Below, piece after piece: positions 3,660-52,558 of a stretch of DNA of 52,558 nucleotides. Every line of letters begins with the position of its first letter. Positions within the stretch are counted from its first letter, which is position 1. The stretch lies in the NCBI GenBank assembly GCA_008632985.1, contig QPGO01000337.1, forward strand, positions 1 to 52,558, in the 5' to 3' direction. The notes under the pieces are model-generated. The model made no database searches, was not told the DNA's origin, and saw nothing but the letters and a program-made list of their open reading frames with translations. Made by a program: the position numbers and the translations under genes. The stretch comes from Psammoneis japonica. Lineage: Eukaryota.

Positions 3660-3744
<85 letters not shown>

Positions 3745-16181: not shown

Positions 16182-16559
16182 AGTGAGGCTCGAATCTTTG
16201 CTGTTGACCAAATCAAAACGATTTTGTGTAGGTCTGATTTTGCGGGAATTGGAAACGCAAGTTCTGTGCATCAGAATGATGGTCGTCCGAAATTTTCGTT
16301 TCGACAGGACCAAGAGATCCATGGATGATGGACAAAATTGGGACAACAGAACATATTTGAAAATAGCATGAACTTTGAAATCGTGTGAACGTACAGTACA
16401 TGTTTCACAACGGAGACTTTTTCAATGTTTATAATTCATGCATGAAAATATTTATAAAACCTAAGTATTGATTTTTGTGTATTCATAGTTCTCTTGTAGT
16501 TTTTTCCGTTCTGCTGTCGTTCCCCTCCGGCTCACTGCTTGTGTTACTCCCGGGCGATC

Positions 16560-17830
16560 GCTGCAGCAGGGCCCTCTCTATCTCTGTCTGCTCTGCTCTT
16601 AAAGTGCCATGTCCTGGCAGCCAGTGGCCAGCAGCTCTGTGAATCAATCATGAAAATCACACGCGACTCTTTTTACAGCCACTGCCTGGTGGCCATCCAC
16701 GCTGATGAGGGTGGAGGGGTGCATCGTTGCCACCACTTGGCTGAAAACAGCGGGTGTCCAGGCAGAAACCAAGCTCTCTCCACATCAGTGCCACCTGCAG
16801 TTTCTCACACTCACAAAGTGGCATTTCCATCTTGGAATTTTGAGTGTCACTGGTGGGTCATTGAAAAACAAAAAAACCAGCGCAGGCGCACACCCAGAGC
16901 TCTCTCGCATTTGAAAAAATGCAGAGGTGCAGCCAACAAAGGCTGGCGTCTTGGCTTGTGTCAGAGTGCAGGGCATGCTGTGCTGGTTTCTTTGCATCAC
17001 AAACTTTGTTGTTGCTCTGGCACTTGCCTTTGCAATGATTGCAACAGGCATGCCTGCCGCAGCCACCGATGATGCTGCACTTTTCCCGCGTCTGTCAGCT
17101 GCCCACAGCTGGCAGCTGACTGCACAGATGCGCACACTGCAAAATGTTATTCCTCGCACAAGACCTGCAACAGGCTGCAGGAGCACCATGTGACCAAGTT
17201 GTGTGGTGCAACTGGCCATTGTGCAAGTGACTTGCATTGTGCAAAGAGTCTGTGCAGGAGACGCGTTCCAGACGTAGGTGGGAATCCGTGTGACATTGGG
17301 CCCGTAGACTTCTACGTGCGAGCTCCGTAGTAAAATTATACGGTAATTAAAATGTCAATGATCGCCAACAGAAAATGAGGCAATTTTGCGAACGCACAAA
17401 CTCGCACATGATTGAAGTACATCATTTTTTACTTAGACAGTTACATTCTTCAGACATTGAAGAATGTAACTGGCGCATTATTGTTTCTATAAATTTGTTA
17501 TATAAAACGTCTGGGGCTTCGCAAAACAGCGAGTCTGGACAATTTTTTTTTAATATCACACGTAGAAATCTACGTACGAAACATACGACGGATGATAAAA
17601 ATCATTGTTGTCACACGTCAGCACTACGAGCTCCCACCTAGGGCTGGAACGCGTCAGGAGATCTGTGAGGTGCAGCGCCGAGCACGGTTGATTCTGAGCA
17701 TGCAGGAGCTGCAAAACTCCATGTGACATGGTGCAGTTTGAAGTTTCTGGCTGCTCTGCTTCTTGATCACAAAATGAAGGACCTGATGCAATGCAAGGAA
17801 ACCTGCCAAAAATGACAGAACAACAATTTG
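16560..17830. repeat. Partial third copy of the repeat found at 28740-30990 and 49480-51720, interrupted by a MITE
   Basis: gtcctggcagccagtg.ccagcagctct.tgaatcaa.catgaaaatcaca and gcagtttgaagtttc...tgatgcaatgcaaggaaacctgc shared by all three loci. Confidence 0.85.
17260..17655. mobile_element. 396-bp non-autonomous TIR element (MITE) with 4-bp TSD AGGA; essentially unmutated
   Basis: Left end gacgcgttccagacgtaggtggga; right end tcccacctagggctggaacgcgtc; agga at 17256-17259 and 17656-17659. Confidence 0.9.
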
Positions 17831-18545
17831 CAGGATGATTTGCCTCTTTCACAATCTTTTTTGCAGAAGACTTTGCATCTTGAAGAAGAGTGCTGCTGAC
17901 TGCAACAACATGGCCAGCATGCTGAGCCCTCAACAAGGATGAATCATTTGAATCTGACAGCTTCATTGCTCCTCTGGTTGTGCTTCATGGTGTGTTGAAT
18001 TGTCAACATTTTTTCAAACAGTCATTTCAACCTTGTGATGTCAACACAGCGAGAGAACAAGCAACAAAAACAACCACATTTGTTGCCATGACAGCATTGC
18101 AAATGGCCCAAACAGTGGCCCGGCTCTCCAAATTTTCAAAGCTGGCTGTGAACTTACAAGCAGATCAATCAGAGGCACCCAAGCAGCAGTGATCCATTTT
18201 TTTCTGCTGCTCTCTGTGGGGCAGAACTCTCTCCACTGGTGGGGCCCTGCTGCTGCCAGGAGTGGAGAGGCTTTCCACACACACTCCACTGGCTGGAAAG
18301 CAGAGAACAGCAGCAGAAAGCATCGCACACCATTGACGGACCCTCAATCTGAATGGCAAAGCACATTTTTTTTTGCACAATGATGTCACAGGTGGAACTT
18401 CCGGAGACAAAATTGGGCCAGTGCATTTGAAATCGCCAAAAATCAATGACAAAATTGCATGTGCACATGACTCAAAATTTTGAAATCCTGTGAAATGCAC
18501 ATGTTGCACAATGGAGATTTTTTGAATGTTCATCAAATGCCTGTA

Positions 18546-19837
18546 CAGTCATTTTCATCATCCGCGGAAAAATCGCGCGACACCCCCCAAAAATGCAGTG
18601 CCCAAAGCACAACTTTTGACCACACGTTCGCGCAGAACTCGCCAAGTCGAAAAACCATGAAAACACGTAGGTTTCCATGCAAATCCAGCACAAAACGAAT
18701 GGCAAAGCTCCACCTCTTCCTCTTCACACACCGGGAAAAATGCCTGCACATTTGATCACAAGGTCACTGCTGCGTTCTTCTTTTCGTCATTCAACTGAAC
18801 TGTTGTTGCCATGACATCGCAGACCTCCTTGTCATCTGCCGGCACTGAGATTGAGCAGCCGGAAATAATTGAATTTGCAATGGCTGCAGTTCAATGTCCT
18901 CAAGGGGAGGCAATGCCGAGAAAGAAGAATCACCGGGGTTCAACTGTCAGTGTGGCACTGCCGTCACCAGATGAGCGCGACATGATGCCAGTTCGTCTTG
19001 GGGGTGGAAGAGTGGACTCTTGTGAAACAGAAACCGCCAAAAGCTAGATCAGAAAAGAAAAAACAGTTCAGTCAACACGACCACATTGTGGACCGGCCGA
19101 CCAGCAGCAACGGTCACACCAGCTCCTCTCGTCGACCTCGGAGGCTCAATTTATCCTCATCACATTTTCTTCTCAAAAGTGAAATTGAGAGATTGCTGGA
19201 GCTTGAAGAATTTGAGTTTTGTGACAGAGAGAAGAAGAAGCAAATTTGCTGTCGGGAAAAGGCACTCGATAAATTCGACATACGAGAAACGAATCCTGAC
19301 AAGGATCCATTGATGTTTCTCCCTCCCAAGCCGGCACGAGATTGGAGCATTGGCGCCGGCATGCCGCTTGATGGATTCAAGGTTGTTTTGAAGCAGAGGC
19401 CCCCAGAACCAGCTCATCCAGCGTCCCTGCTTTCATCAGACGATGAATTGTCTGTGGATGATGCATCCTGCTGCTTCAACTTGAGGAACAAGCTCCGAGA
19501 AGACAAGGACTGCGACGATCAAGGCAAGAACGACTTCCAGCAATGTCTTTTCGGTTTGCCACAGCTTTTCTTCCAACGTTGCAATGTGGAACAACATGTG
19601 ACGCAACACTGCCATACAACGCGAAACGGTTTGCTGCGTTTGGTTGTAAAGGTTGCAATGAGATGGACCTGCCGCTTGACAAAGGAAAAATGTGCTGGAC
19701 TCACGTAGAATCCTACGTGTTTTTGTCGTTTTTCGACTTGGTGATTTTCGCGGGAGGCTGGCGCAAAAGTTGTGCATTGGGCAACTCTATTTTTGGGGGG
19801 TGTCGCGCGATTTTTCCGCGGATGATGAAAATGACTG
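18546..19837. mobile_element. Tc1/mariner-like non-autonomous element, ~145-bp imperfect TIRs, TA TSD
   Basis: TA|cagtcattttcatcatccgcggaaaaatcgcgcgacacccccc ... ggggggtgtcgcgcgatttttccgcggatgatgaaaatgactg|TA. CAGT termini with TA TSD are typical of Tc1/mariner. No DDE domain recognised in internal ORFs 18811-19708. Confidence 0.85.
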
Positions 19838-20173
19838 TAAATGACAAAGGACAAAGAGTGTTGATTGGTGCACAGCTCTCTTGCATGTTTTGGACTTGAG
19901 TGCAACCTTTTGACAAACAAAAGTTGTGAAACCTTGCCAGTGCAGGAATGGCACTGTGATCTGTGGCAGCACTTGCTTTGCACTTTTGAAGCACAGGAAA
20001 ATTGGCGCACATTGCATTGCCTTTGTCAACAGTGCTGCCAGCAGGAATGTCATCACAGTGCACCATGAGTGGTGATGATGGCAATTGCAACCCATCCAAA
20101 GTCACAACATGCTGTTTGACCAGATGACATGCTTTCTGCTGTCCTGCGCATGATTTAAATTCAACTCTCTGCA

Positions 20174-22886
20174 GACGCGTTCCAGCCCTGGGTGGGACTC
20201 CATGTGACATTGGGCCCGTGGAATTCTGCATGCAAGCTCCGCAGTACGAGAATTCAATTGATGGACACATTTGTCTTCAACATCAAATAAATGGCCAAGT
20301 TTGTGGTGCAATTGTGCCTCTTGCCACTTGACGTTTTTGCAAGTGCGCCTGCCCTGCGCGATTCTTAAGGTGGTGCAGGCACAAAAGTGGGCCAGATTCT
20401 GCGCACGCAGAGCCCAGCATGTTTTCCACACAAATCGCCAAAGTCGGCTCGCCAACTTGAACCCTCTCCAGGATGATGGAAACTTGGACATTTCATTTAA
20501 CAAAGTGTTTGGACCACTTGGTTGCACTTCCCTCGACTTGTTTGTGAAGAGAAGTTACAAGTTTCCATGGGTTTCTCGTTTTGCACTGCTCTTTAAAACT
20601 CGAACGTCGCGATTTCGGCACCTTTCTGATTAGATTCGTCACACATCCTCAGAAACCTGTGAAAACTTGTGACTTCTCTCCCCAAACAAGTCGAGGAGAG
20701 TGTAACCAAGCAGTCGAAACACTTTGTCATGTGAAATGTCCAAGTTTCCATCGTCCTGGAGAGGGTTCAAGTTGGCGAGCCGACTTTGGCGATTTGTGTA
20801 GAAAACATGCTAAGCTCTACGTGCGTAGAATCTGGCCCACTTTTGTGCCTGCACCACCTTAAGACATTGTAGAATCGCGCTGTAACAAAAAATGTAAAAA
20901 GTTGTTGGACGGATCGCTCAACAAGTGTGCCGCAAAATGACACAAAATGTCGAAAAAATCACGTAGAAATCTACGTGCGCGACATGCGACGTGATTCAAA
21001 AAACCATCGATGTCACAGTTCAGCAGGACTCCCAATGCTCGAGTGTGTGTGGGCCCAAGTTATTCTAAAAACCGTCAACGGCCGTCACCATGTAATTTGG
21101 TGGCATTTTGGCACTCTACACATGAGGCATTTATGCAGAAATTACGCGCGCACAATTGACAGGGGAAGCGAGCGTGGAGAAGAGACGACGCGAGCGAAGC
21201 ACGAGCGAAGAGACCGACAATGATGCAAGAGCCGCAGAGAGACGCAAAGACAGCAATCCAACGATGTTGCAAGAGGGCACAAAAGAGAGAAAAGATCTGT
21301 TTGAGTCAGTGCCATGTCTCAAACAAAAAGAACAAAGCAAGACAACATTGGCATGCACAAAAACTTGCACAGAGAAGCACGGCACCAGTGCCTGAAAAAT
21401 GGCCACATCTGCGGTGACATGGAACAACACAAGGAGGTGAGAACATGCTTTTCTACAAATGCAAAGCAACAACGAGCAAACGACCAATGTAAACTCACCA
21501 GCAGGGTCAAAACTTGGGGTGCCTGGATCGTCAACGGCGGGCAGGGAGGACAGATGGAAGAGAGGCAGTCTGGTGGTTCCACGGAGCAGGACGACAAAAG
21601 CAGGCGGCAAGTCGGCATGAGCAATGGCAGAAAGTCGGCGCTTGGGATCGAGTGACTGGCGCGGTCCACACAAATCATGGCAGCAGCTTGGAGAATGGAG
21701 GCAGTGCCATGGTGGTGCGGCACAGACCGGGGAGAGAAGAAGTGCCGCGGCGGAATGGCATGGAACGGTGACGGAGCCAAAAATGGTGACGGCGACGGCG
21801 TAGACCCGTGGACTTAGACATCCCCACACTCGAGTCCTGCACATCAAGGTGCGGGACAAGGAGGTTCAAGGTGAGCGCCACTGCGAACGAGAACGGGGAA
21901 AAAGACGCATGATTCCACGAGAATCAGAACTCGCCACATTTTGAGTCATTCTGACCCATTCCAGAGCCAGGACTCCCTCACATGGCACGAACCAATGGAT
22001 CACAACACTGTCAAGCAGGGCAGGGGTCGGGAGGCGGTGTTGCACCGGTCAAATCGGCCAAAAGCGCCATTGTCGGAGGGAGCGGTGGTTGTCGATCGGC
22101 CGCTCGGAAAAATTGTGAGCCATCAACTCGACCGCGCACCGTTCGGAGTCGCACAGAATTTCTCGGTGCAAAATGCACACAAGTGCACGTCAGCATAAAA
22201 ATCCTGTAGAAGGGGTGCAAGTAGAACCTTCACTGTCTCTCTGCATGCTGCGAGGATTCTGCCGTTAAACCACACCAGCATGTGCAATTCTACGTGGTGG
22301 ATTTGAATCAATCCCACCAACGTTTTTGAATTTCGATCGTAATGATGGTTTTGGGTGCTGAGATGAACACAATGTGTGAGTTTGAATTGAATGTCATGTT
22401 TGGCGTCAACAATTTTGAATGATTGCACGACTGCCAGTCGGCACCAAAAACCATCACCAATGAGCAAACCTGCAGTGCAAAAGCACTCTTTGCAACACTT
22501 TGGCACTTCAGTCTTGCACATGAAAGCGCTCCCCAAGTGGTTGACGGTCGAACCACATGTGTGAAATCCTCACAGCGGGAGACCCTATGTGCGCTCCCGT
22601 GTGCACTCAACGCGCCTCGGTTACGACCTTCTCGTTGGGTTGCACAATGGCGAGAATGACCCACAGCTTGTCGTGTGGCCTTCTCGTTGGGCTAAAGCCC
22701 TCCTCGTCGTCCACCCTCCTCGCTGGGGTCGTTCTCGCCATTGTGCAACCCAATGAGAAGGTCTCCACCTCGTTGCTTGGACCCTTCTCGTCGGGTTTGG
22801 CGGGGCCGAACCCTCCTCGTCGGGCTCCATAAGTGCACAGGGCGCACACCTGCAGTGCAAGGTCCCACCTAGACCTGGAACACGTC
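20174..22886. mobile_element. 2.7-kb TIR element of the same family as 17260-17655, 4-bp TSD TGCA, with a nested insertion
   Basis: tgca|gacgcgttccagccctgggtggga ... tcccacctagacctggaacacgtc|tgca; the first ~75 nt and 20960-21025 align with the MITE at 17260; subterminal ccttctcgt(t/c)ggg repeats at ~22627-22795. Confidence 0.85.
20369..20858. mobile_element. 490-bp MITE with 127-bp TIRs and TTAA TSD (Kolobok-like GG termini)
   Basis: ttaa|ggtggtgcaggcacaaaagtgggccagattct ... agaatctggcccacttttgtgcctgcaccacc|ttaa; arms 20369-20495 and 20732-20858 differ at 6 positions. Superfamily inferred from TSD and termini only. Confidence 0.9.
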
Positions 22887-25855: not shown

Positions 25856-26862
25856 ATCGTGAGTCTTTGCGTCGACCATTCTTCGAGACTCACGATGGAG
25901 CGGAGAGCGGAGAGTGGTTTGACTTTCAAGGACTGAGATGAGCGCGCGGATGCAGGAAGTGGTCAGTCTTGCCTGCTCGTGACTCAGTGCTTTTCTGCGG
26001 TGAAAATTGCGTGGAGATCTGAAGATGACAAAAACGGCCCGATGACTTCCGCTGACAACAACATCAACTGCATGCAATGTGCATTCGATGTTCTGCAATG
26101 CATGAATTAACAACTTCAAGCATTGGATGCAGTTGCTTTGATGAATTTCGCCAAAATGACGCTGAGCCCTGCATTGCGTGCAAATCCATGGCACTCCGCA
26201 TGATTCGTGTTTCGTTTCGGACAACTTCCAATTCGTCAAAGCAACTGCATCTAATGCCCAAAATGGTTTGTTCAAGCATTGACGAACACAGAATGCATGT
26301 TGCATGCAATTGACATTGTTGTCAGTGGAAGTTATCTGACCGTTTTTGTCATCATTGGATTCCTGCGCAATTTTCACTGTGGGGAAGCACTGAGTCACGA
26401 GCAGGCGGGACTGACCACTTCCTGCATCCGCGCGCTTGCCTCAGCCCTTAAAAGTCAAACCACTCTCCGCTCTCCACTCCATCGTGAGTCTCGAAGAACG
26501 GTCAACGCAAAGACTCACGATGAATTAACACCTTTGAGCGTTAGATGCAGTTGCTTTGATGAATTTCGCCAAAATGACGCCAAGCCCTGTGTTGCGCACA
26601 AATCCACGGCACTCCGCACGACTCGTGTTTTGTTTCGGATGACTTCCAATTCGTCAAAGTAACTGCATGCAATGCCCAAAATAGCCAACTCAACTGTCAA
26701 CGAACACAGAATGCACATTAGGTGCAGTTCATGTTGCAGTTGGCGGAAGTCATCTGACCGTTTTTGTCATCATCGGATTCCTGCGCAATTTTCACCGCAG
26801 AAATGCACTGAGTCACGAGCAGGCGGGACTGACCACTTCCTGCATCCGCGCGCTCGCCTCAG
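25856..26862. repeat. Fold-back structure: ~240-bp inverted repeat plus partial tandem duplication
   Basis: 25856-26093 is the reverse complement of ~26283-26522; ~26101-26445 recurs at ~26519-26862; related sequence at ~47510-47572. Confidence 0.85.
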
Positions 26863-26865
26863 TCC

Positions 26866-32016: not shown

Positions 32017-32097
32017 NNNNNNNNNNNNNNNNNNNNNNNNNNNNNNNNNNNNNNNNNNNNNNNNNNNNNNNNNNNNNNNNNNNNNNNNNNNNNNNNN
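32017..32097. other. Assembly gap (81 N)
   Basis: Run of n. Confidence 0.99.
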
Positions 32098-32996: not shown

Positions 32997-33006
32997 GGTC
33001 ATGAGC
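32997..33006 (+). other. Putative primer-binding site ggtcatgagc (ggttatgagc-type half-tRNA-Met PBS with TA->CA)
   Basis: Directly abuts the 5' LTR; resembles the GGTTATG(G/A)GC PBS of Copia elements. Confidence 0.6.
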
Positions 33007-39603: not shown

Positions 39604-39733
39604 TTGTCATCGGGTTTTGTGGATTGAGTCTTGGGTGTGTCTCTCTTTTCTTTGTTTTGTTCTTTGCCATTCTGGTCCTCTCTTTTTATTCGGATCGTCT
39701 CTTTCTTTCTTGTTGAGCATTGCATTGCTCATC

Positions 39734-39742
39734 AGGGGAGGG
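39734..39742 (+). other. Polypurine tract aggggaggg
   Basis: Immediately precedes the tgaca start of the 3' LTR. Confidence 0.85.
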
Positions 39743-41893: not shown

Positions 41894-44800
41894 GACGAGT
41901 TTGGAGAATCCAATCTCTGTCCCGGTTGTGGCCAAAGTTTTTTGCGAACAGCCTGCCATTGGAGACACTCACCGACGTGTTGCTCAGTTGCCCAAGAGTT
42001 GCAAACCCAAGATCTAATCCCAGATCAAAGCGACATTCCTGCCACAATGGAGGGGCCACCCAAAGAAAGCAGCAGTTCTTCCTCTTTGTCCTCTGATGAT
42101 GACGAATCCCATCCGAGGCGATCTGCTTGCAGCAGATTCCCAAGATCTTCAACGAGTGATCCAAGCAGCAGCCCCTTGTTCCCCTCCCAGGATGACGCAC
42201 CGCACGGAATGGATGACATGTCCTCCATTTCATCAAACCACAGCATGCACAGAGTTGAACTTTGAGCAATGAACGATTTGGATGTTGGCGGTGGTCAATC
42301 CTTTGCTGCAGTGTTGGACGTGACAATGGAGGAGGAAGAGGACATTCACGATGAGGATCAATGTTTGGGGATCAGGTGTGACGCTCCTGCAGAAGAGGCC
42401 TTGGCTTCTGCTCCCTCTTTGACAAATCTTGATGGAGCTTGCGCAGAGTTGTGCAAGAAGATCATGGACACATGTGGTGCTCCCCTGGAATTGTGCGATT
42501 GCATTGTTGATTTCATTGAGAGGCACACTGGCAACAGCAACATTGAGCTTGGTGCAGTTCTGCCAAGGAGAAAAGAGTTGATGCGCACCTTAACTGATCA
42601 TTTCCCTCTTCCACCCAGCGAGTCTGTTCCTGTCACTCTAGAAACCAAAAATTTCAAAACCGGTTTGCCAAAACGAATGTCAGTGCCAAGATGGGATTTC
42701 ACAAAGGTTTGGGAACAGTTTTTGCTCGATCCTCACCTGTGGTGCAGCAGAGAGAACATGGCCAATCCAGACAATCCTTTTGGGAAGTGCAAAGCAAAGG
42801 GGCCGGATGACAAGTGCCTTTTGGCGGGTGAGTGGTGCAGGCGCAGTCACGAAGAATGGACAACTGACCTGGAGAAACAATTTCTCGAGTGCAATGTCAT
42901 TTGCCTCGACAAGACTGGCAGGACACAAGGGATGGGATCATGTTGCGGAGAACCAGTGATCATGACCTCTGCGCATGTTGCCTTCAACAAATGGTCAGAC
43001 AAGAGTGTCTGGAAACCAATTGGTTGTCTCCCGGATTTGGAAAAGATGTCATCATCTGCGGCAAAGAATCTCTCAAACAATCGCAAGGCAGAGAAGGGAC
43101 GCTCGTCAAGAGACTGCCACACTTGCTTGCGTGTTGTTTTGGAGCCACTTTTGGAAGTCATGAGAAAAGGAGGCATGAAAACATGTGTGCGACGGGGGGA
43201 TGAGATGCGACACCTCCACGTAATCCCACTGATCGTTCTGATCACAGGAGACACAAAAAGCGGCGACTGTCTCGTCAGACGATGCGGAGGTCACAACTGT
43301 CGTCAACATTGCTGTCGTTTCTGCCTCACTGGCTTCAACAAACTGGATGACCCATGGATTGAATGCAAGTTTGTCTGAGGACTGGATCTCCACCAAGTGC
43401 AAACTAAGGCCAACGACGACAACAGATCAGACCAAGAAAGGAAGCACTGGTTGGGCATCTTGCATTGCCTCAAGCAACACAACGCACCTGCCAACTGTCT
43501 TTTTGAGGCAGACTTTGGCGCACAACCATGCGGTGTTGCCCTTGTGACAGCAAGTGACATGATGCATCTCTTTGAAAATGGCACCTTGAAAAGGGCAATC
43601 AATTCATTTGTAGACAGCATGACACCTGTGGTTGCAAGTGAGGTGGACAGCACAGTGGAAAGGATTTTCAGCAATCACCGGTCAATTTGCAAAGCATCCT
43701 TTTTGTGAACAAACTTCAAAGGAGGAGCAACGTCGCTTGCCTTCCTCAACTCTCACCACTGGGCTGGAATGGCTTTTGTTTTCTACCTTCTCCTGTCAAC
43801 CAGCGAGGGACGAAACGCATGTGAGTCATGCTTCCTTGACAAGGACGCAGATGAACCCATTGTTCCAGAGAATCGCAAGATGCCCAAAGCAAACTTTGAG
43901 AGTTGCTGCCAACCCAGTGAGCACTTGGACTCTGACAATGAAAGGTCGGAGGAGTCTGAAGAGGGTGACTGGGACGAAAATGAGGATGAGAAAGAGGAGA
44001 GTGAGGCTGAGGATGGTGATGACAACCAAAAAAAGAAAAAACACAAGGGAAAAAGACTCAACTGCAGCGTCCGGCAATTCATTCAATTGCTCGAGGACCT
44101 TCTTGTCTTCCACGCATGGCACAGGCTGGGCGATCCACCCATCACAAGCGCAACTCCCAGTTCATCTGTTCAGAAAACAAACAAGAAAATCCGTCTCCTC
44201 ATTGACTGGACAGTGCAACTCGTCCCGCGAACAGAAGGATGCAGGTGGAAGCTTCAAAAGCTTCATGAAACACTCCATCTCCCAGTGTTTCTTTGTTGTT
44301 GCCGACATGCGATGAACTTTGACGCAGGGTTGGGGGAATGTCTCTTGAAAGACTTTTTCAAGCTGCCATCATCTGCCGCACAACAATGCAACCTTGACAG
44401 TTTTCTGAAGCAGGTCGTGTCGCGCATGGAGGACCAAATGAGGCTCAACGCCGCAATTTCAGCTGACAGTTGGATTTTGCCAACTGGGAAAAAGGAATCA
44501 TCAAGAGTCAGGACAGACAATCACACGCTGGGAGGAAGCACGTTCACTCTCACCTGCAACCAAGGGATTGGTGCTGTGACGTTTGAGTGGAGCAGCTTGC
44601 ATGCTCGTTGCCAAGTTCATCCTGTGTCACCAAACTTCATGTCGGAAAAGTGGGAGGATTGTGTTGGTGAAGACAGTGAAAACACACACCTGACTTGCAA
44701 GACAGAGTTTTGCAATGCAAGCGGGAGGGATGCGCACCGTGCGCACCCCAATTGCAAAAGTGAAGGACCATGGCATGACTTTGCCCATGTGACCTTTGGC

Positions 44801-45277
44801 ACACGAAAGGGCGATCAACAGCTTCCCTCCCGTTTGCTGTGTTTCTTCGAACAGGAAGACACAGGATCGATTTTTGCAGTGGTCCATCCAACTGCTCATC
44901 AAGCTGACCAGAGAACTGTGAGGCAACGGTGTCAGCACACAGACTTGGTCAGTTGCTGGCAGCTTGATCACAAACGAAACAACTGGCTTTCAACGCCTGA
45001 GAAGACTCAGCACTCACCTGAGTTACGTGTTGTCCCCATCGAAGCAATTGGGGACAATGTTTTGGTTTATGAAGAATGTCCAGGAGCAGCAGAAGCGCAA
45101 GAAAAGGCCCCATTTGTTTGGGCTGCACAGGACAGAAGGAAGTGTTGGTCAGATTTGTTTCTAAAACAGGATGCGCGTGTCAATCTGTCATTCACTCACA
45201 GTGATTTCCCAACTCTTCTTGCAAACATGATGAATTTGATCCTTTCAGAATTGGCAAAGTCATTGTGGTGCATGTGA
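41894..45277 (+). pseudogene. Plavaka-type (EnSpm/CACTA-related) transposase; one reading frame broken by three TGA codons
   Basis: ORFs 41942, 42269, 43397 and 43769 share one frame. Motifs ICLDKT, EPVIMT, WKPIGCLP, RDCHTCL..VLEPL, ITGDTKSGD, DMMHLFENG, *TNFKGG, QKLHETLH, HRAHPNCKSEGPWHDF. Element ends not found. Confidence 0.8.
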
Positions 45278-45472
45278 AGCAGTGCGGTGCAAGCACCTTC
45301 CATTGCTTTCATTCTGATGTCTTCTTCTGAAACTCCAAGACAAGCTTCTTCCTGATCGGAAGGCTTTCCCAACCACTGACACGACAGGAAACTCTCGATG
45401 CATCAGATGTGTGCAGTTTTAGAGCAATTGCTTCCTCACAGATTCTATGCAGTGTCCACTTGCACGGTCCAT

Positions 45473-46384
45473 TCAGTCATCCTGTGCCATGAAATGTTCC
45501 CTGGCAGCCACAATCGCCTGCTGAAAGTCGGCGCTGTGGTCAGGCTGGTTGACAGCCACCAATTGTGCCTCGATTTGCAATGCCAACTGCAGGACCCTTT
45601 CTCTTGCCATGGCTTCTTCGTCCATGGCCCGGATCGCGGTCCACATCCCTCCATGCATTTGATCTGTGCCTGGCCTCAGATCATACAAAGCTTGCCACTG
45701 TCGCTGCAAGGCAACATCTTTCCTTCTCAAATCGTCAAGGGCCTTGGGGAGCAACGTGATTGCACCCTTCAGGACGCGCAGCGGCTGTGTTAGATGTCAC
45801 CTTCGAAGGAGTGGCACGGCATGGCGGTGGATGGATTTGTCAATGCTGTCAATCGCAGATTGCTCCCTCTCCACTCTTGTGGCATCTGTGTCAGAATTTG
45901 CCCTGAGGCTTCTCAGAAGCAACGTCGAGTCACAGCTGTGCAGCATGTGCAGCCTCAATTCTGATTTTTGATGTCCCGCAACGGAGATTGGGAGCCCCAG
46001 TTCTTTTGTGTCAAATGCGTTGCCGTGAAGAAAGCGTTGGAAACTCATTTCCGCTTCGCTGTAATTTTCCACTGCAACAACACAGTCGTTGTCTGAACAG
46101 TGTGTCTCGATCGACGACTTAATGCACTGTGCACAGATGTGCTTAAATTCGCGAGTGGTTGTTGCTTGATTCAACAAAGCAATCTCAAGTGCGGTCATTG
46201 CAGCCACAATGGCATGACGGGCTTCTGCCATTGCTTCTGTCGATCTTGACACAGCAGCCTTTGCATCCTTTGCTGTCTGTTCCTCCGAACAACGAGCAGC
46301 GTCAGCGTGAACAATGCCACCAACTGTCTCCATCATGCAGCGACGGAAATCCTCATCAGCAGACAGACGGAGTTCATCTGACAT
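45473..46384 (-). pseudogene. Possible decayed helical/coiled-coil accessory ORF convergent with the transposase
   Basis: ORFs 45797-46384 and 45473-45754 read as Ala/Glu/Arg-rich natural-looking protein; no family recognised. Confidence 0.3.
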
Positions 46385-47580
46385 GGTTTTCTTCTAATGC
46401 TCTGATTGTTGTGGTCGTGGGTCCGCCATTGCATTCACCAGATTGGTCATGTGTCAGTCACAAAATTCTGGTTTCTGTGGAAATGCACCAGAGTGGTGCG
46501 TGGGAGAAGTCACATGCGCGCCTGGCAGGATTTGGAGTTTTAAACACAAAAACCCACCAGACGCACATGCAACTTCTCCCAGGGAAATCCCACGTGAGAT
46601 TGTGCCGGGAAAGGGCAATGTGGAGTGTAGAATTGATGGAAGAAAACATTGTGCAAACATGCATCAGGAGAAAGGGTGTGTGTGCTGGAAAGAACATGGA
46701 TTTCTACATGCGCGTTAAGGTGCGTGAAGAACACGTGGGTGCCTTCAAGTGAAGCATGCGAACAATCACAAAGAAACATTGGGAAATGGAGACAGCATGG
46801 AGAGAAGTCAGAAACATGGATCCAAAACAAAGTGACACACGATGAAGGCGACGGCGATGGGATTTGATGAAAAAGAAGGATTTGGATGGAAAGACACCGG
46901 AGACGGTGAAAACAGGCGGCGCCAAGAGGAAGAAGGGAGAGAAAAACAGGACGGGCAAAATGAAGAAAGAGAAAAAGAAGCAGACAACACGACGTCAAGA
47001 GGGGAGCAGCAACGCGATTCTGCATTTCGAGGGACCTCTTCCTCTCGATGATGTTTGCCCAAATGCAAGAAATGCAGTGTGGCTTTTTTGGAATGGTGAC
47101 GAGGAAACATCCAACGCGGCAGCAGCACATTTGAAATTCTTGCAAGAGAGTGGACAAGACATGTGGAATGAAGAGGACGATGCGGACGAATGGGCCAATT
47201 GGAGCACAGTTGTTGATCAAACAATTGGTGCGCACTTTGCATGATGAAAATTTCATCATGTGCAACTGCAATGTTTGGCTTGTTGTTAAAGATCGTCAGT
47301 TGTTGTGAAAAAGGCAGAGCACAAAAATTAAAAAGCATCTGTGTTCAAACATGAAGAACAGCAGGAGATCAACAATTGACCAAATGACAAAAACCGTCAT
47401 GTGCAGACAAGTAAATTTTATGACACAGCAACACAATTTTGTCATGCATGCAGGTGTTGCAATGTCGTGCACTCTGATGAAAGCTTTGGAAACGGGCAAC
47501 TTTCACCACACGTTGACTGTTCTTTGAGACTCACGATGATGGAGCGGATGGAGAGTGGAGAGTGGTTCGACTTGTCGCTT

Positions 47581-50500
47581 TTGGCACATTCTCGCGTGAA
47601 AAAAAAAAATGCACGCAGCAAAGAATCATTCTTGGCCGTTCAGATTAGAAGCCTGCAAATGCAATCGATCCTCCTTGCTTTGTGTGTGCAGCACTGCATG
47701 TGATGATGTTCTTCTAATTCATGTGCCCCCATGCCCTGAGGTGTCAGAGGATTTTCCATCAACGGAATGACAGTTGAGGAGCTTTGGAAAATGGTGGTGG
47801 CATTTGGGATTGGATTGCCATGTGCAGTGTGTCTTTAGTCACACACAACAGCTCTCGCATGACTTGGAAATCAGGTCCCTTTTGACTTTACTTTTCACCA
47901 CTTCAACAGAAACGAGAAGCCGAATTCATTTTCCACATCAAGAACACGGCAACACCAAGTGGACAATGTCTTCGGACCGTCATTGTCGCTGAACCAATTG
48001 AGGCCACCACACCATGCTTGTGGCACAACAACGCAGTGCTTGAGCAGCAAACATGAAACAATCAGGGGGCANAGGTGGACAGGACAATGGTGAAGGAAAG
48101 TCGTGGAGGAGGTTGCAGTCATGGACGGCCATTTGCACAATCGCAAGTGGCGCGGCTGCTGTCACTGCATTGCTTGTCACACTGGGTGATGAAGATGACC
48201 CTTCACCATCAGACCCTGCACCGATGCCACCCGAGGCCCCTGCGCCAACGCCACCCAATGCCCGAGCCTCCGTCCACATTGTGCATGGAGGCGATTCGCA
48301 CGGGTGCCCACCGGCACTGGATTTGTCCATGCAGATTGGTGACCGAGTGTTTGGACCTTGTGAAAATCCATTCCGTGTTGACAATGTCCCGCTGGGCAAT
48401 CAGGCATGTTCCACAGATGGCCAAACAACCTGCAACGCCATTGACTTTTCTTGCTCTGCTTTCAGTTGTGGCAAGGTTGACATTGCCAATGGGAAATCTT
48501 TCTCACTCTTTTGGCAGCAAGAGACAGGAAGTGTTGTTTGCTCCATTTGGCTCAACTGATTCTCTTCCTTCTTGCTTGTTCACCAATGTGCATGAGAAGA
48601 TTGCTGCAGGAAAGAACACACCTTGTCATCAAAGTCATGTCGACATGTGTCCGAAAAAAAAAAGACACACACCGCACAACATGCAAACTGCAAGCAGTTC
48701 ACAGTTGCACCATCCTTTCAAATGCTGCTCAATCATTCATTCCATCTCTGCCTGATCAACATGCGCAATTGCCTTTCTGAAAGCATCCACCTTGTTGACC
48801 ATTTGGGGGCTTTTCCTTTTTGATTCCTCTGTCGATTCAAAATGCGAATGGAAATTTTGATTCCTCCGCCTTGCACACTTTTGTGTTGCCACTTAGAGCA
48901 TGGGTGCCATCGTAAAACCGTTGACGTCTTTGTTGATCTTGTTGTCGTAAATGACGTCATCAACATGCCACCATTGCGTTGCTGTCCCTGATCCCAACTC
49001 GAAATGCATCGGGTTCCCTCTTGGCACCTTGTGCCTTTCATCCTGCACAGTCACCATGACATGTGATCAACAGAATTGCCATCAATTGTGCCAAAGCTGT
49101 CGAACTTGGAAACGGTCATAAACTCACAAGGCAGTCAGCAAATGTGGCAATTGCTTCAGGCGGTCTCCCAGAAACGCGTCATCAGTGACACATTGGTTCT
49201 TCGTCCAGCAATTTGGCCACCTTGCATGGGCACACGACATGCGCAACACATGCACCAAAGACTGAAATCATGTGCAAACCAACCCAACTGTTGGCGCGCT
49301 AATGTGGAATCACCCAATGTTGCAACTGGTCCATCAGTGTTGCCATCATCGCCATTCGATGCTCACTGCACTGCATTTCAAAATGGGCTGAAAATGCGCA
49401 ATTGCAAGAATGAAGTTCTCTTGCAGTTTCATTTTTCCCGTGTGACTTCTTGTTCCTCTCTCACTCGAATGAACAGCAGGCCCCCTCTCTGTCTCTCTGC
49501 TCTGCTCTCCAGTGGCAGAGAGTGCCGTGTCCTGGCAGCCAGTGACCAGCAGCTCTGTGAATCAATCATGAAAATCACACACAACTCTTTTTAGAGCCAC
49601 AGGTGCCTGGTGGCCATCCGTGCTGATGAGGGGTGTGTCATTGTCCCACTCAGCGGAAAACAGCCAATGTCTCCAGGCAGAGACCAAACTCATGCCATGG
49701 CCACCTGCGGTCTCTCCTGGCATGCTGCTTGGAGTTTTGCCACTGCAGCTGACTCACAAAGTGGCACTTCCATCCTGGGATTTTGAGAGTGACTTGTGGG
49801 TCATTGAAAAACATGAAACTGGTGCTGAGTGCACACACCCAGAGCTCTGATGTTTGAGGAAAAATGCAGAGATTCAGCGGACAAGGCTGACGTCTTGGCT
49901 TGTGTCAGAGTGCGGGACACACTGTGCTGGTCTCTTCACCTTGCAACTTTTGTTGATGCTCTGGCACTTGCCTTTGCAGTTGCAGCAGGCATTGCTGCCA
50001 CAGCTGCCGATGATGATGCTTTTCTGTGTTTGCAGGCTGCCCACAGTTGACAACTGATTGTGCAAAAGGGCACATTGAAAAAAGCAACTTCTTTTGTCAC
50101 AAGAAGACCTGTGACAGGCTGCAAAAGTTCCATGAGACCAAGTTGCAGCCATCGTGCAAGTGACTCACATTGTGTGAAGGGTCTGTGCTGCAAGATCTGC
50201 ATGGGGTGCCGCACACAGAGTGCGGTCATTGACTCCATGTGAGGACTCAAGCTCCACATGTTTTGCCATTGCACACACATGTGCTCTGCATGAAAAAGTT
50301 TTGCAATTTTGCACAACACAGAAAATCTCTGCCGGAGCACTTTGGTGTCATTCTTGCACAGGTTGCAGCGACACGTCTCAGATGCTTCTGTGAGTGCTGT
50401 GAGGCTGACACACAGCAATTCCCAGTGGCCGGCTCCCAATCAAGTCAGGGGGCTTCAAGATTTCCTGTGCATGCTGGTGCAGGCTAGATGACACCAATCA

Positions 50501-52558
50501 TGGATGCTGGCACACTGACAAATTTGCCAGTGTGAGTCACACCAATGGCATGTCATCTGGAGGAGTGTAAAAAGCACAGCAAGCATTGTTTGTGGCAAAC
50601 ACTGGACCTGTCATGAGCTTCCCCACTGTTTTCTGTTACAACCCAATTTTGCATTTGGCAACTCAGCAACCTGGTCTGCCTTTTCTTGCTCTTGCACCCA
50701 TTTTGAGCAGAAATTGTGGCTTTTTTGCCAATCAAAAGGGACCAGTCATTTTGCACTTGTTTCACTCTTTGAAGCCAAGCTTGGTTGCTCTGCTGTTGCC
50801 ATTTGTGTTCATGTTGGCTGGTGCCAATTCCACAACAGTCAATTTTCTGCCCTTTGGAGCACTTTTCAGGAGCCAAATCTTCAAGAGTCAGGCCTGCTTG
50901 AGCAGTGTCAAAAGGAAAACTGTCCTCCTCCAGCTTGGCCAGGCAGCACAGATTGGATCACACATTTGGACCTCCCAGAGTGGGAGTTGGTTGTGGGAAG
51001 CACACGACAATGCAGCACATGATGAGGAGGATGCTGACTCATGGAAATCATCTCAACATCAGCAGGCAGAAGCTGAGCTTGCAGCTGTGTGTGACAAATG
51101 CCAGGAGGAGCACCTTGCCAAAAGAAACAGAGAGGTTCTGATGGACACTCCATGCACAAAAGATCACATGTTACATTCCACCACTTCCAGAATTCAGCTC
51201 AGAGTTGTGTTGCTGAGGTCAAACCATGTCCAAAGGAGAACATCAACAAAGCAAAGGGCCAAGTGCTTTGTGGCACTTGCACCATTGCCAGCTGCTTCAG
51301 TGGGGTGTCACCTTGTTCAGGTGTTTCGCCAGTGCTGGCACAGCTGGCAAAGGAGCAACAGCACTTGAAACTCAGATTTGATTTTTTGGCTTTTTGTGTT
51401 GTTCAAAATGTGATCACTCTCACACAAGTGCAACTTTAAGGCAGTGTGGCATGACTGGAGTGCTGCCTGTGGTCTCTTTGGCTCAGCAACAATTCACCAC
51501 TTCACATGGGTGGATGCAGCACAACATTCCACAGGTTTGTTGAAGAATGTGCAAAAGCAACCCGAGCAAGATTGCTGCCAAGTCAACCAACATGTCAAAG
51601 CACAAAGCTGCACATGCTGCATGCTGCAGCAGTTTGAAGTTTCCAGTTGCTCCAGCTTCTTGATCACAGGATGAAGGAACTGATGCAATGCAAGGAAACC
51701 TGCAAAAAATGACAGAACCTGTTTGATGGTGCTTTTTGCATTTGTTGTTCAAGTGAGCAACTCCACAGTCAAACAAGTCAATCTTTTTGGCACACAGTTG
51801 ATCCACTGTGCCTGGGTTCCTTGGTTGCATGTGGCATCACTCTGCAAATGGCATTGCAATGCATTTGGGCAACACCTTTTTCCTCAGCATGCCAGCTGTT
51901 TGATGATGTTTCTCTCCACAGAAGAAAGAAGTGTTGAGATGTTGTGCAATGAAGGCTATCACACTTGCAAAGTTTCTGAAGTTGTTGAAGTTGTCAGCAG
52001 GAATGCATGGGCAAGCATCCATGTCAATTGCCTCTGCCAGCAAGCATGTGTTCAGGGCATCTAACATGACAGAGGCATCATGCTGGTTTCAGCCAGAAGT
52101 GGAGGTTCAACAAGTTGAAGCCTGCTTGGGTGTGCATTTGCAACTGACTTTTTGTGTTCCTTTGCACAGTGAATTCATGGCACATTCTGCACCTTGTGCA
52201 AGCCCCATCTGACATTGGCTGGCATGTTGAATGCCCCATTTTGTCAAGTTTTGTGGTCAGTGCATGCAACTGTCTGGTGACAAGGAGTGCACTTCAAACT
52301 CTCAGTGACCATGGTTTCATGATTTTCAAGCAACTCACATTGCTGTGGGTGCAGACAAGCTGAGTGCATCACTCAGCTTGCAGCTGCAAAATGCCGCTGG
52401 CTTGTTTTTCATGAGATGTTGCTGCTCTCAGCTGAAACTTGTCTGAAGCATCAGTGTGTGTGTCTCAAAGCAAAAAGAGTGTCTGGGTGAGTCAGGAGGG
52501 CCAACACCTTTTTTCATGGACAACTGTGTGATGACAGGTGTTGGCAGCCGCGCATGTG
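47581..52558. repeat. ~5-kb direct repeat, copy B (runs to the window end)
   Basis: Colinear with 26866-31838. Confidence 0.95.
48053..48559 (+). pseudogene. Open but TpA-mutated copy of the small membrane protein gene (168 aa)
   Basis: TM helix, PSPSDPAPMPPEAPAPTPP linker, ~95-aa Gly-rich domain with no Tyr; one n at 48072. Confidence 0.5.

Follow-up and report, generated by a model that had tools for sequence, protein, structure and literature searches.

Near-complete loss of TpA from mobile and repeated DNA of the diatom Psammoneis japonica suggests a TpA-restricted transition mutator

The DNA analysed here, referred to as the window, is a stretch of 52,558 nucleotides of Psammoneis japonica (contig QPGO01000337.1, positions 1 to 52,558). 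Its gene-bearing part at 4131–16563, used as control DNA, carries genes for adenylosuccinate synthetase and a Pus10-like protein recognised by Pfam matches, a repeat-rich open reading frame of 1175 codons and intergenic DNA. Between genes, at 2350–4130, lies a non-coding tandem repeat with units of about 700 bp and a (CT)n microsatellite. A repeat fragment at 16601–17259, 73% identical to both 28739–29452 and 49474–50188, is followed by a MITE-like element (17260–17655) with 24-nt terminal inverted repeats (TIRs) that are 92% complementary. The main block, at 17656–52558, consists of mobile and repeated sequences that have degraded. It contains two TIR-bounded structures, one at 18544–19839 with 150-bp arms that are 84% alike and one at 25927–26868 with arms that are 82% alike and an internal tandem repeat (26102–26449/26520–26867). 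An unclassified 5-kb repeat is present in two forward-strand copies, copy A (26866–31838) and copy B (47581–52558, extending to the window end), which are 91% identical over 5073 columns. The forward strand also carries a dead Copia-type pol region (36327–39535) with Pfam matches to gag-pre-integrase, the SH3-like integrase domain SH3_retrovirus and RVT_2, and a dead Plavaka/KDZ-type DNA transposase frame (42266–45274), recognised by translation and a weak Pfam Plavaka match, whose 1003 codons are interrupted by just two TGA.

In the main block, TpA is lost almost completely (173 seen, 1299 expected at the frequency of the gene part; the binomial p value was printed as 0) and CpG partially (913 seen, 1918 expected). 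Observed/expected (O/E) dinucleotide counts per kb, taken in 35 intervals from 18001 to the end, were 0.00–0.27 for TpA, with 27 of the 35 intervals at 0.00–0.12, 0.05–0.99 for CpG and on average 1.38–2.09 for TG/CA, while ApA/TpT showed no depletion (1.01–1.47). These values agree with the preliminary description, which had reported nearly TpA-free unrelated repeats together with a less complete decay of CpG, and our recount of 38101–39600 gave exactly its manual result of one TA and 33 CG. As it had stated for Copia, Plavaka, TIR elements and unclassified repeats, the depletion extends to unrelated types of repeat, namely the Copia element, the Plavaka/KDZ-type frame, the two TIR-bounded structures and the unclassified repeats; tandem repeats are affected as well. 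The TpA that survives is mostly part of TTAA or CTAA/TTAG, whereas none is left in RTAY. Over the 35 intervals of the block, TpA O/E and CpG O/E are correlated (Spearman 0.66, p 2e-5), yet in several intervals TpA is almost absent and CpG near normal, for example at 26001–27000 with 0.16 and 0.99, respectively. The GC content is 0.45–0.53 in the depleted part and the gene part alike, in accordance with the earlier proposal that both decays roughly offset each other.

The borders of the depletion can be placed to within tens of bases and coincide with repeat edges (2350/4130, 16601 and 17259/17656); within the window the change is restricted to mobile and repeated DNA. Its start had been placed at 16550; depletion indeed begins nearby, with the fragment at 16601–17259, but it is interrupted at 17260–17655, resumes at 17656 and has a separate island at 2350–4130. 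This island holds a single TA (at 3625) in 1.8 kb, with normal density on either side, and CG is absent from 2892–4181; the fragment at 16601–17259 holds two TA, compared with dense TA directly upstream. Adjacent genes are normal (TpA O/E 0.29–0.75 and CpG O/E 0.77–1.14 at 1–2000 and 4001–16000), and the unique non-coding DNA adjoining the block is richest in TA (O/E 0.61–0.75 at 1001–2000, 6001–7000 and 12001–13000). A coding tandem repeat within a gene (15248–15779) shows no CA/TG double among 61 differences. The 396-bp MITE-like element retains 29 TA as well as numerous CpG, as counted by hand from position lists, and the sequences on its two sides both match a single element of the 5-kb repeat family; it is probably a young insertion nested in a depleted repeat and serves as an internal control. 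As neither this element nor a tandem duplication at 11571–12455 (444 bp, 98% identical) is depleted, repetition alone is insufficient, unless the process works slowly or in episodes.

Comparison of the Copia pol region with 58 homologues revealed that all 13 conserved tyrosines are lost (8 to Cys, 2 to His, 2 to Phe and 1 to Arg), and 10 of these codons now read TGY or CAY. Among 35 inferred single-step transitions, 21 are of the TpA type and 8 of the CpG type. T precedes the changed base in 18 of 21 inferred A>G changes and A in one. The region has 265 homologues, every named one from a diatom, and the median tyrosine content of 120 homologous Copia proteins is 3.56%. On the sense strand of 36301–39600, 410 TG were counted compared with 293 CA. 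Two 165-bp direct repeats on the forward strand (32829–32993 and 40008–40172, 92% identical), one on either side of the Copia coding region, are candidate 5′ and 3′ LTRs, around which neither a target-site duplication nor a primer-binding site was recognised. All of their 13 mismatched positions lie within the TA/CG/TG/CA system (4 CA/TG doubles, 3 CG vs TG and 2 TA vs TG/CA). Contig joints and loose ends from a public run (X1) coincide at 40007/40008, which therefore represents an element border.

The KDZ frame, which has homologues down to E 7e-232, one of them carrying PF18759, provided a similar picture. Compared with 8 homologues it has lost all 14 conserved tyrosines, nine of them to TGC or CAY, and its tyrosine content is 0.2% as against 2.4–3.7% in 9 homologues. 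The 36 inferred single-step transitions include 15 of the TpA type and 9 of the CpG type; T precedes 8 of 11 inferred A>G changes and A precedes three. As the tyrosine content of their homologues is normal, the Copia and KDZ families are not intrinsically TA-free. The complete loss of conserved tyrosines from both frames and the predominance of A>G after T, or of T>C before A, bear out the direction from TpA to TpG or CpA that had been deduced earlier from tyrosine codons read as TGY or CAY. The change is as strong in a DNA transposon, which passes through no RNA stage, as in a retrotransposon, and this indicates action at the level of DNA.

The two copies of the 5-kb repeat differ by 219 transitions and 59 transversions, comprising 40 CA-vs-TG doubles, 52 CG-vs-TG/CA sites and 21 TA-vs-TG/CA sites; the last class had been noticed before as TA/TG and TA/CA differences between paired copies. 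By a hand estimate, about 14 of these 21 sites are back-mutations from about 1000 TG/CA sites, and substitution-rate estimates from this pair are unreliable. A decay model with a single rate gave about 12 CA/TG doubles as against the 40 seen, for which both ancestral CG and ancestral TA can be the source. Eighteen such doubles distinguish the tandem units of the island at 2350–4130, and the tandem units 26102–26449 and 26520–26867 differ by 11, along with 8 CG-type and 6 TA-type differences. Between inverted arms, we counted 5 doubles at 25927–26868 and, at 18544–19839, 2 doubles with 3 CG-type and 2 TA-type differences. This richness of repeat pairs and tandem repeats in CA-vs-TG doubles indicates that the change arose in place and on either DNA strand; action on both strands had been proposed before.

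A related Copia family from metagenomes, whose host is presumably a diatom, was aligned in 27 rows representing 26 distinct sequences, and 57 ancestral TA columns were defined by the majority of 22 little-affected copies. Of these 57 TA, copy L054 kept 2, L044 10, L035 11, L027 20 and L029 32, and at 28 of the columns both TG and CA are present among these five copies. L054 carries 30 TG, 21 CA, 3 CG and 1 TC at the ancestral TA columns. Its transition fraction is 0.49 at T[A] strand-sites as compared with 0.02–0.08 in all other contexts (CpG 0.084); relative to other A:T contexts the fraction is raised about 6- to 20-fold, and the rate by still more. For the family, the context excess is 35-fold, sister copies of similar divergence retain TA, and TG was gained about 1.5 times as often as CA. 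TpA loss is independent of CpG decay; in this family it is graded, and CpG loss is not raised alongside.

The preliminary description knew of no account of such a process, which is now superseded by one preprint on an unrelated alga, the chlorarachniophyte Bigelowiella natans, where integrated viral DNA undergoes TpA-restricted A:T>G:C hypermutation (Mettrop et al., bioRxiv 10.64898/2026.01.13.699255, version 2026-04-14). According to this preprint, two viral regions of mutation-accumulation lines acquired 231 new mutations, of which 230 were A>G or T>C, all 230 at TpA; the mutation rate there was about 1000-fold over background, and the excess was limited to these two regions. The genome contains 124 clusters that are poor in TpA and rich in CpA+TpG. 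Four Pfam domains are enriched in a subset of TpA-poor coding sequences, and three of them are reverse-transcriptase or DDE-endonuclease domains. Both systems bear an identical signature of A:T>G:C changes solely at TpA, giving TpG or CpA by strand, and they share the confinement to foreign or mobile DNA, the type of cluster left behind and, as to those enriched domains in B. natans, the kind of coding sequence concerned. In B. natans the process was seen live, whereas in P. japonica it is deduced from accumulated differences. The rhizarian targets are an NCLDV region of 186 kb and a virophage region of 25 kb, both inserted as single copies and still containing many TpA (Rho 0.45); those of the stramenopile are both transposon classes and tandem repeats, near saturation (O/E about 0.05) and with CpG decay in addition. 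The accessible text of the preprint mentions neither diatoms nor CpG, and in the literature searched we found no report of TpA-erasing hypermutation in diatoms.

The change in the window runs from TpA to TpG or CpA, is restricted to this dinucleotide and to local stretches, and affects both strands, in elements of classes I and II as well as in tandem repeats. We consider it likely that the block is a diatom mobile-element graveyard, mutated in place by a TpA-restricted transition mutator with CpG decay superposed. Modified bases cause systematic miscalls on some sequencing platforms, and no platform is recorded for run X1; nevertheless, an artefact of this type, or families that never had TpA, is largely refuted and barely credible. 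For 32100–52000, this run yielded 7456 contig pieces, which shows most of this stretch to be repeated in the genome; 1287 of them are at least 99% alike to the window, an agreement of high-depth k-mer contigs that is not an independent confirmation, as run and window may go back to one and the same sample. Contigs of 351–467 bp align to copy B with 1–10 differences. The same change is present in short-read metagenome assemblies, homologues have normal tyrosine contents, and the proteins are broken at conserved residues (72 of 216 conserved columns changed in Copia, 124 of 359 in KDZ); the depletion is not a base-calling artefact. A genome-wide, untargeted TpA mutation bias would be visible only in unconstrained dead DNA if selection held genes and short intergenic DNA. 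The gene part is indeed mildly TpA-poor (O/E 0.29–0.75), the short intergenic DNA of diatoms may be under constraint, and the correlation of TpA and CpG O/E is expected if both track age. This explanation is nevertheless quite improbable in view of the TA-richness of the adjoining unique non-coding DNA, the 29 TA kept by the nested element, the sharp borders, the 35-fold context excess in a Copia family with similarly diverged TA-retaining sister copies, and the restriction of the B. natans excess to two regions.

The sense-strand excess in Copia (TG over CA, and Cys over His at former tyrosines), the corresponding excess of TG gains in the metagenome family and the varying degree of change among its copies would be accounted for by an ADAR-like or other deaminase acting on retrotransposon RNA or minus-strand cDNA, so that copies are born mutated like APOBEC-edited retroelements. 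Such editing before integration is very improbable, because the KDZ DNA transposon is hit equally and symmetrically (8 A>G vs 7 T>C at TpA), CA/TG doubles occur in tandem repeats formed in place, the non-coding island is depleted too and both strands are affected throughout; to our knowledge, ADARs are metazoan. In every copy comparison most differences are transitions (219 of 278 in the 5-kb pair, and likewise in the variant classes of run X1), and heterochromatin commonly shows altered repair. These points would suit error-prone patch repair or poorly repaired replication errors in heterochromatin without a dedicated editor, including Pol eta-type WA>WG synthesis or absent mismatch repair. 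We give this reading very little probability, and the Pol eta-like candidate named earlier is disfavoured, as ApA/TpT is undepleted and A>G rarely follows A (1 of 21 and 3 of 11 cases); the 6- to 20-fold excess and the conversion of more than 95% of sites are more extreme than the repair-defect spectra known to us. A further alternative keeps the targeted process and lets a TET/JBP-type dioxygenase, or a different enzyme that modifies thymine, mark the T of TpA in silenced repeats, mispairing with G or mis-repair then giving T>C. TpA is self-complementary, A>G on one strand being T>C on the other, so the sequence does not tell which base is attacked, and T>C fits all data equally well. SAR unites dinoflagellates, diatoms and chlorarachniophytes, a point in its favour; against it, 5-hydroxymethyluracil (5hmU) pairs with A and we know of no strong mutagenicity. 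In dinoflagellates, 5hmU is made by a TET/JBP homologue and located mostly in repeats, where it contributes to transposon silencing; according to older work, T is replaced preferentially in TA and TC (PMC11572971, accessible part). The alternative would share with this system the SAR lineage, thymine marking in transposons, the dinucleotide preference and the use in silencing; however, the 5hmU is an epigenetic mark whose mutagenicity is not shown there (PMC11572971). Attack on T is on balance unlikely and, with a TC preference, would deplete TpC as well.

For the proposed TpA-restricted mutator, a nucleic-acid adenine deaminase acting on DNA is our tentative first choice, the TadA/ADAT2 lineage having a preference for a 5′-U/T neighbour. 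A>G with such a neighbour is the product of TadA/ADAT2 deaminases and ADARs, which are tRNA and RNA A-to-I editors, and of TadA-derived DNA base editors. ADAT2 is, as far as we know, universal and essential, and its presence is therefore uninformative. ADARs prefer a 3′-G, in mismatch with the surviving TTAA and CTAA/TTAG and the wiped-out RTAY. A thymine-modifying enzyme at TpA is a doubtful second choice. The B. natans preprint suggests an ADAT2-like protein, citing DNA editing by amphioxus ADAT2 (bioRxiv 10.64898/2026.01.13.699255, accessible text).

Known processes resemble the signature in part. RIP of ascomycete fungi is likewise a genome defence with context-specific transitions on both strands of repeated or mobile DNA, sharp borders and destroyed frames. 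It turns C:G into T:A, predominantly at CpA, with TpA and stop codons as products, whereas in P. japonica A:T becomes G:C, TpA is destroyed and two of three stop codons vanish; the contrast drawn in the preliminary description thus stands. RIP moreover requires duplication and a premeiotic stage, unlike the single-copy target in B. natans and the untouched 98% duplication of 444 bp described here. Diatoms methylate transposon CpGs, and decay of such sites resembles the CpG component of the block (O/E, R>H/C/Q changes and the 52 CG-vs-TG/CA sites) but is unable to remove TpA. RIP, RNA-only editing, Pol eta-type WA mutagenesis and artefact are disfavoured.

In the favoured scheme, a Copia LTR retrotransposon, a Plavaka/KDZ DNA transposon, TIR elements and unclassified and tandem repeats would have inserted and then mutated in place as DNA. 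Every TpA would become TpG or CpA depending on the strand attacked, almost to saturation, and a slower CpG to TpG/CpA decay, as expected from cytosine methylation, would be superposed. The mutator would aim at silenced mobile and repeated DNA and spare nearby genes, intergenic DNA and the nested young TIR element; we infer that it may act as an active defence for which the silencing machinery provides the guidance. Loss of TAY codons would wreck the proteins, and loss of TAA and TAG stops would leave misleadingly long open frames. TpA loss in transposons looks like a genome-defence mutation process that leaves the neighbouring genes untouched.

Counting dinucleotides per kilobase revealed observed/expected (O/E) ratios of 0.29–0.75 for TpA and 0.77–1.14 for CpG in the gene part of the window (1–2000 and 4001–16000), whereas from 18001 to the window end TpA O/E was 0.00–0.27, CpG O/E was 0.05–0.99 and the mean O/E of TG and CA went up to 1.38–2.09. 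The block of degraded mobile and repeated DNA (17656–52558) contains 173 TpA against 1299 predicted from the gene-part frequency, a depletion of about 7-fold, and 913 CpG against 1918 predicted in the same way. ApT (O/E 0.65–1.14) and ApA/TpT (1.01–1.47) were not depleted in the block. These counts confirm the TpA depletion of repeats beside normal genes put forward in the preliminary description, whose manual count for 38101–39600 (1 TA, 33 CG) was reproduced exactly. TpA and CpG O/E were correlated across the block (Spearman 0.66), with TpA loss being the more complete of the two, as in 26001–27000 (TpA O/E 0.16, CpG O/E 0.99). GC content stays at 0.45–0.53 across the whole window, in agreement with the earlier proposal that the two decays cancel in GC content, and for this reason RIP indices and GC scans miss the TpA loss.

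Within the window, the block and two islands were depleted, and genes, intergenic DNA and a nested element with terminal inverted repeats (TIRs) were not. The first island, a non-coding tandem repeat at 2350–4130, has a single TA (at 3625) with TA dense on either side and hence sharp borders; within it, the dinucleotide CT is repeated about 44 times as a microsatellite (3656–3743). The second is a repeat fragment at 16601–17259 of the same family as 28739–29452 and 49474–50188. Nested within this depleted repeat lies an undepleted MITE-like element (17260–17655; 396 bp, 29 TA, many CpG) with 24-nt TIRs that are 92% complementary, and depletion restarts at 17656. Either the element inserted recently or the mutator does not see its sequence. 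As TAA (148) and TAG (92) are nearly gone relative to TGA (1667; both strands, 18001–52558), the dead DNA carries long stop-free frames, 125 of at least 100 codons in 16500–52558, often overlapping on both strands, and dead elements retain frames of 500–1000 codons. Gene finders would predict spurious Cys/His-rich, Tyr-free proteins there.

The first 16.5 kb encode a TruD-like fragment, an adenylosuccinate synthetase, a Pus10-like gene and a repeat-rich ORF of 1175 codons. The adenylosuccinate synthetase shares 83% identity with its best matches and 77–80% with proteins of the named diatoms Epithemia, Amphora, Seminavis and Mayamaea, which identifies the window as diatom DNA. An exact look-up of two proteins of the window gave no match in the protein collection. 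Two genes of the pseudouridine-synthase type, the TruD-like fragment (181–921) and the Pus10-like gene (9848–11587), are located within 10 kb, probably by coincidence.

Inside the block, a degraded Copia element on the forward strand (36327–39535) matches PF13976 (E 0.04), PF25597 (E 1.3e-9) and PF07727 (E 7.8e-5) in this order, the matches being weak because the element is degraded. The order gag-pre-integrase, integrase, RVT_2 is present, and the homologues (265, E down to 6e-137; the named ones from Nitzschia, Cylindrotheca, Fistulifera and Fragilaria) carry the same three domains. Its coding region is flanked by direct repeats of 165 bp on the forward strand (32829–32993 and 40008–40172). 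These are the only LTR candidates; no other direct repeats were found around 32829–40172, and neither a target-site duplication nor a primer-binding site was recognised for them. A forward-strand frame of 1003 codons at 42266–45274, interrupted by two TGA only, scored 21.7 bits against PF18759, under the curated cut-off of 26.3, and its homologue P0123 (E 9e-178) carries this domain. By homology, the frame is classified as a degraded Plavaka/KDZ-type element. The block also holds two TIR-bounded structures, tandem repeats and an unclassified 5-kb repeat present twice (copy A, 26866–31838; copy B, 47581–52558; 91% identity). An assembly gap of 81 N lies at 32017–32097 and a single N at 48072 in copy B. 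Contigs of the public sequencing run X1 matched 32100–52000 with 7456 pieces, 1287 of them at least 99% alike, and their summed depth of about 80–17000, against about 55–115 for single contigs, together with the number of pieces, indicates that most of the block is repeated in the genome. As X1 is possibly the window's own source, it serves as a check of base calling and not as independent replication; its k-mer contigs reproduce the assembled sequence.

The direction of change was read from protein conservation. The Copia pol ORF (38108–39535) was aligned with 58 homologues, and 72 of the 216 conserved columns (at least 80% agreement) are altered in the window. All 13 conserved tyrosines are gone, replaced by cysteine (TGY, 8), histidine (CAY, 2), phenylalanine (2) and arginine (1), and the ORF has no tyrosine at all, compared with a median of 3.56% among 120 homologues. 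Comparison of the KDZ frame with 8 homologues gave a similar result: 124 of 359 conserved columns are altered and 14 of 14 conserved tyrosines are lost (6 to cysteine, 3 to histidine, 5 to others). Its tyrosine content is 0.2% against 2.4–3.7%, and its cysteine content 5.3% against 2.2–3.1%, in 9 homologues, the closest of which (60% identity) retains tyrosine at four of the lost positions. Both frames together have thus lost 27 of 27 conserved tyrosines, 19 of them to TGY or CAY. Among 35 single-step transitions in Copia, 21 fall at TpA (18 A>G after T, 3 T>C before A), 8 at CpG and 6 elsewhere; the 36 in the KDZ frame divide into 15 at TpA (8 A>G after T, 7 T>C before A), 9 at CpG and 12 others. 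TpA therefore accounts for 36 and CpG-type change for 17 of the 71 inferred transitions. The tyrosine losses and single-step changes indicate that TA was ancestral and TG or CA derived; as judged from their homologues, the Copia and KDZ families do not lack TA intrinsically. These data support the core of the preliminary description, a directed mutator that changes TpA to TpG/CpA.

Differences between repeat copies indicate where this process takes place. When a TA or CG is hit on different strands after duplication, CA in one copy faces TG in the other; counts of these double differences pool TA and CG ancestors, and their occurrence by chance is almost impossible. The 5-kb pair shows 40 doubles among 278 mismatched positions, besides 52 CG-versus-TG/CA and 21 TA-versus-TG/CA sites. 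Tandem repeats derived from local DNA duplication have 18 (island, 2600–4160) and 11 (26102–26867), the TIR arms of the two structures have 2 and 5, and all 13 differing positions of the 165-bp repeats flanking Copia belong to the TA/CG/TG/CA system. A coding tandem repeat within a gene (15248–15779) has no doubles in 61 differences. The doubles and the equal damage in a DNA transposon demonstrate a process acting on chromosomal DNA, in place and on either strand. A 444-bp tandem duplication at 11571–12455 (98% identity), beginning at the 3′ terminus of the Pus10-like ORF, has normal TA content and composition, and its units differ at a single TA/CA and a single CG/TG site; the duplication may be very recent and too young to show change, or it may be an assembly duplication. 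Single-rate decay of the 5-kb pair predicted about 12 doubles against the 40 observed, and its TA-polymorphic sites are confounded by back-mutation, so that a rate estimate from this pair was dropped. The fragment at 16.6 kb was rejected as an outgroup for three-way polarisation because it is itself depleted.

A metagenome scan with the Copia alignment, whose patterns favour intact copies, yielded 80 loci, most of them with TpA O/E of 0.46–0.83. Depleted loci were L054 (0.05), L044 (0.23), L027 (0.37), L067 (0.39), L014 (0.40) and the single sequence met twice as L033 and L035 (0.29 and 0.32). One family, 79–90% alike over 1.6 kb and presumed to have a diatom host, comprises 27 of the loci (26 distinct sequences). 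The majority of 22 little-affected copies was taken as the earlier state, which gave 57 ancestral TA columns. Of these, L054 retains 2, L044 10, L035 11, L027 20 and L029 32. In L054, TA has become TG (30) or CA (21) at 51 of the 57 columns, CG at 3 and TC at 1; 28 of these columns hold TG as well as CA across the five copies. In columns with confident flanks, the transition fraction of L054 at T[A] strand-sites was 0.49, corresponding to 37 events at 38 dinucleotides, against 0.02–0.08 in every other context (CpG, 0.084), and three control copies showed 3 transitions at 76 such sites. TA counts over 1.6 kb were 4 in L054, 20 in L044, 27 in L033/L035, 33 in L027 and 61 in L029, compared with 56–84 in the other copies, while CpG was unchanged. 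These spectra indicate that TpA loss is a separate process, graded among sister copies and uncoupled from CpG loss.

One of 120 Copia homologues from a word search is Tyr-poor (P0102; 1.0% Tyr, 4.1% Cys), and the best 150 representative homologues from a library of 1.84 billion proteins include six with less than 1% Tyr, five of which exceed 3.5% Cys; all six are fragments of 196–345 residues. P0368, P0324, P0320, P0379, P0345, P0347 and P0102 are Copia pol sequences with 0–1% Tyr and mostly raised Cys and His. These compositions suggest that further data sets contain copies mutated in a similar way, from which such proteins are probably translated.

TpA survival in the block relative to the gene part depended on flanking bases, being 0 for ATAT, 0.01 for ATAC/GTAT, 0.03 for GTAC and 0.04 for ATAG/CTAT, but 0.40 for CTAA/TTAG and 0.65 for TTAA. 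An additive rate model calculated by hand fits roughly, with rates falling in the order T > C > G >> A for the base 3′ of the hit A; an equivalent form uses the second base 5′ of it (A > G > C >> T). Survivor counts cannot separate the two sides, and polarised metagenome sites are few and non-independent. Mean TA retention in the metagenome family follows the same trend, on small numbers (RTAY 0.60, YTAY 0.72, YTAR 0.85). Among NTGN words, NTGC rises most in the block relative to genes, a comparison confounded by ancestral composition. The sense strand of the Copia region 36301–39600 contains 410 TG against 293 CA, with 8 Tyr→Cys against 2 Tyr→His changes, whereas the KDZ frame is symmetric without strand excess. 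The metagenome family has gained about 1.5 TG for each CA, from a TG/CA baseline of 0.8–1.0. Local TG-versus-CA skews of 0.17–0.26 (absolute) were observed at 36301–39600 (forward strand), 18001–19000, 21001–22000 and 41001–42000. The skew may reflect a transcription-linked strand bias of the mutator.

The best-supported explanation is a DNA-level transition mutator confined to TpA and probably directed at silenced mobile or repeated DNA, with ordinary CpG decay overlaid. Decay of the 5-methylcytosine type (CpG>TpG/CpA) is present, as seen in the CpG counts and the CpG-type transitions, and covers only part of the signal. An untargeted genome-wide bias against TpA is contradicted by adjoining unique non-coding DNA that is TA-rich and by sister copies that retain their TA. 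Hyperediting of retroelements from A to I at the RNA stage, as by an ADAR-like enzyme, would agree with the sense-strand excess of Copia; however, TG and CA products are both found everywhere, and this process cannot explain the damage in the KDZ DNA transposon or in tandem repeats altered in place. Mutagenesis of the Pol eta type (WA>WG), a candidate in the preliminary description, is disfavoured because A after A is spared: AA/TT is undepleted in the block, A>G after A accounts for only 1 of 21 changes in Copia and 3 of 11 in KDZ, and in L054 transitions affect a fraction of 0.04 of the A[A] sites but 0.49 of the T[A] sites. GC-biased gene conversion was also considered and rejected, as it would not be dinucleotide-specific and CpG decay goes the opposite way.

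As TpA is self-complementary, A>G and T>C cannot be distinguished. Thus, the directed TpA→TpG/CpA change proposed earlier stands, and in place of A alone either A or T may be the base hit, T>C fitting equally well. For the TpA-confined mutator, we rank a DNA-acting adenine deaminase first. The TadA/ADAT2 lineage prefers a 5′-U/T neighbour, and the sense-strand excess in Copia would fit a deaminase acting on the displaced non-template strand. An ADAT2-like candidate has been put forward for the chlorarachniophyte Bigelowiella natans in the available text of a preprint (Mettrop et al., bioRxiv 10.64898/2026.01.13.699255). A thymine modifier, ranked second, is conceivable by analogy with 5hmU, which occurs in dinoflagellate repeats with a preference for TA/TC, according to the text available (PMC11572971).

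The preliminary description knew of no account of such a process, but the same signature is described in the B. natans preprint, and the window is a further case of this very recently described kind of TpA hypermutation. According to the accessible part of that source, mutation-accumulation lines acquired 231 new mutations in two regions of integrated viral DNA, of which 230 were A>G or T>C and every one of these lay at TpA, at about 1000 times the background rate and in 11 of 15 lines; the genome has 124 TpA-poor, CpA+TpG-rich clusters, and the main target is single-copy (bioRxiv 10.64898/2026.01.13.699255). The change from A:T to G:C at TpA, giving TpG/CpA, is shared with the window, here in a stramenopile and known from accumulated differences. 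Unlike what this part of the preprint reports, the window is near saturation, involves both transposon classes and tandem repeats with CpG decay alongside, and has changes that depend on flanking bases and are biased by strand. Fungal RIP changes C:G to T:A at CpA and enriches TpA, whereas in the window TpA is depleted, TG/CA is enriched and A:T becomes G:C. The process is therefore chemically the opposite of RIP, as proposed earlier, and resembles it in logic. RIP is triggered by duplications of at least a few hundred bases; the 444-bp duplication of the window has only the two differences and may be too young. Since this duplication and the nested TIR element are untouched and the main target in B. 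natans is single-copy, the targeting agent is probably not simply duplication. Full-text literature searches, with most subscription journals outside their coverage, turned up nothing on TpA loss in diatom transposons, and the text of Maumus et al. 2009 (PMC2806351), searched by terms, gave no relevant mention. A mutation-accumulation study of Phaeodactylum, as far as its accessible text goes, gives CG, CC and TG, without TA, as the contexts prone to mutation and left out high-coverage sites against false positives from repeats (PMC6604790).

One can speculate, tentatively and with the balance of probability against it, that an ancient chromatin-guided natural DNA base editor, common to diatoms and chlorarachniophytes, edits the TpA sites of silenced transposons and integrated viruses. 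It would be a RIP-like defence of opposite chemistry, acting on DNA strands that transcription lays open and in this way accounting for the Copia sense-strand excess, with RTAY most and TTAA least sensitive, and widespread enough to appear in environmental metagenomes. The flanking preference could then be the enzyme's fingerprint, and an enzyme of natural origin that turns A:T into G:C in chromosomal DNA, with a specificity of two bases, would be of direct interest to base-editing technology. The graded metagenome copies are a ready data set for the mutator spectrum, and the genetic tractability of some diatoms makes the enzyme question testable. In diatoms, TpA loss biases the dating and annotation of repeats as well as gene prediction. 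The signature occurs in a second, ecologically dominant lineage and is detectable in metagenomes. Should diatoms possess a dedicated TpA editor, they would be a second major eukaryotic lineage with a mutational genome defence besides fungal RIP, in the opposite direction, and together with B. natans this would suggest a trait that is old or widely distributed across the SAR supergroup.
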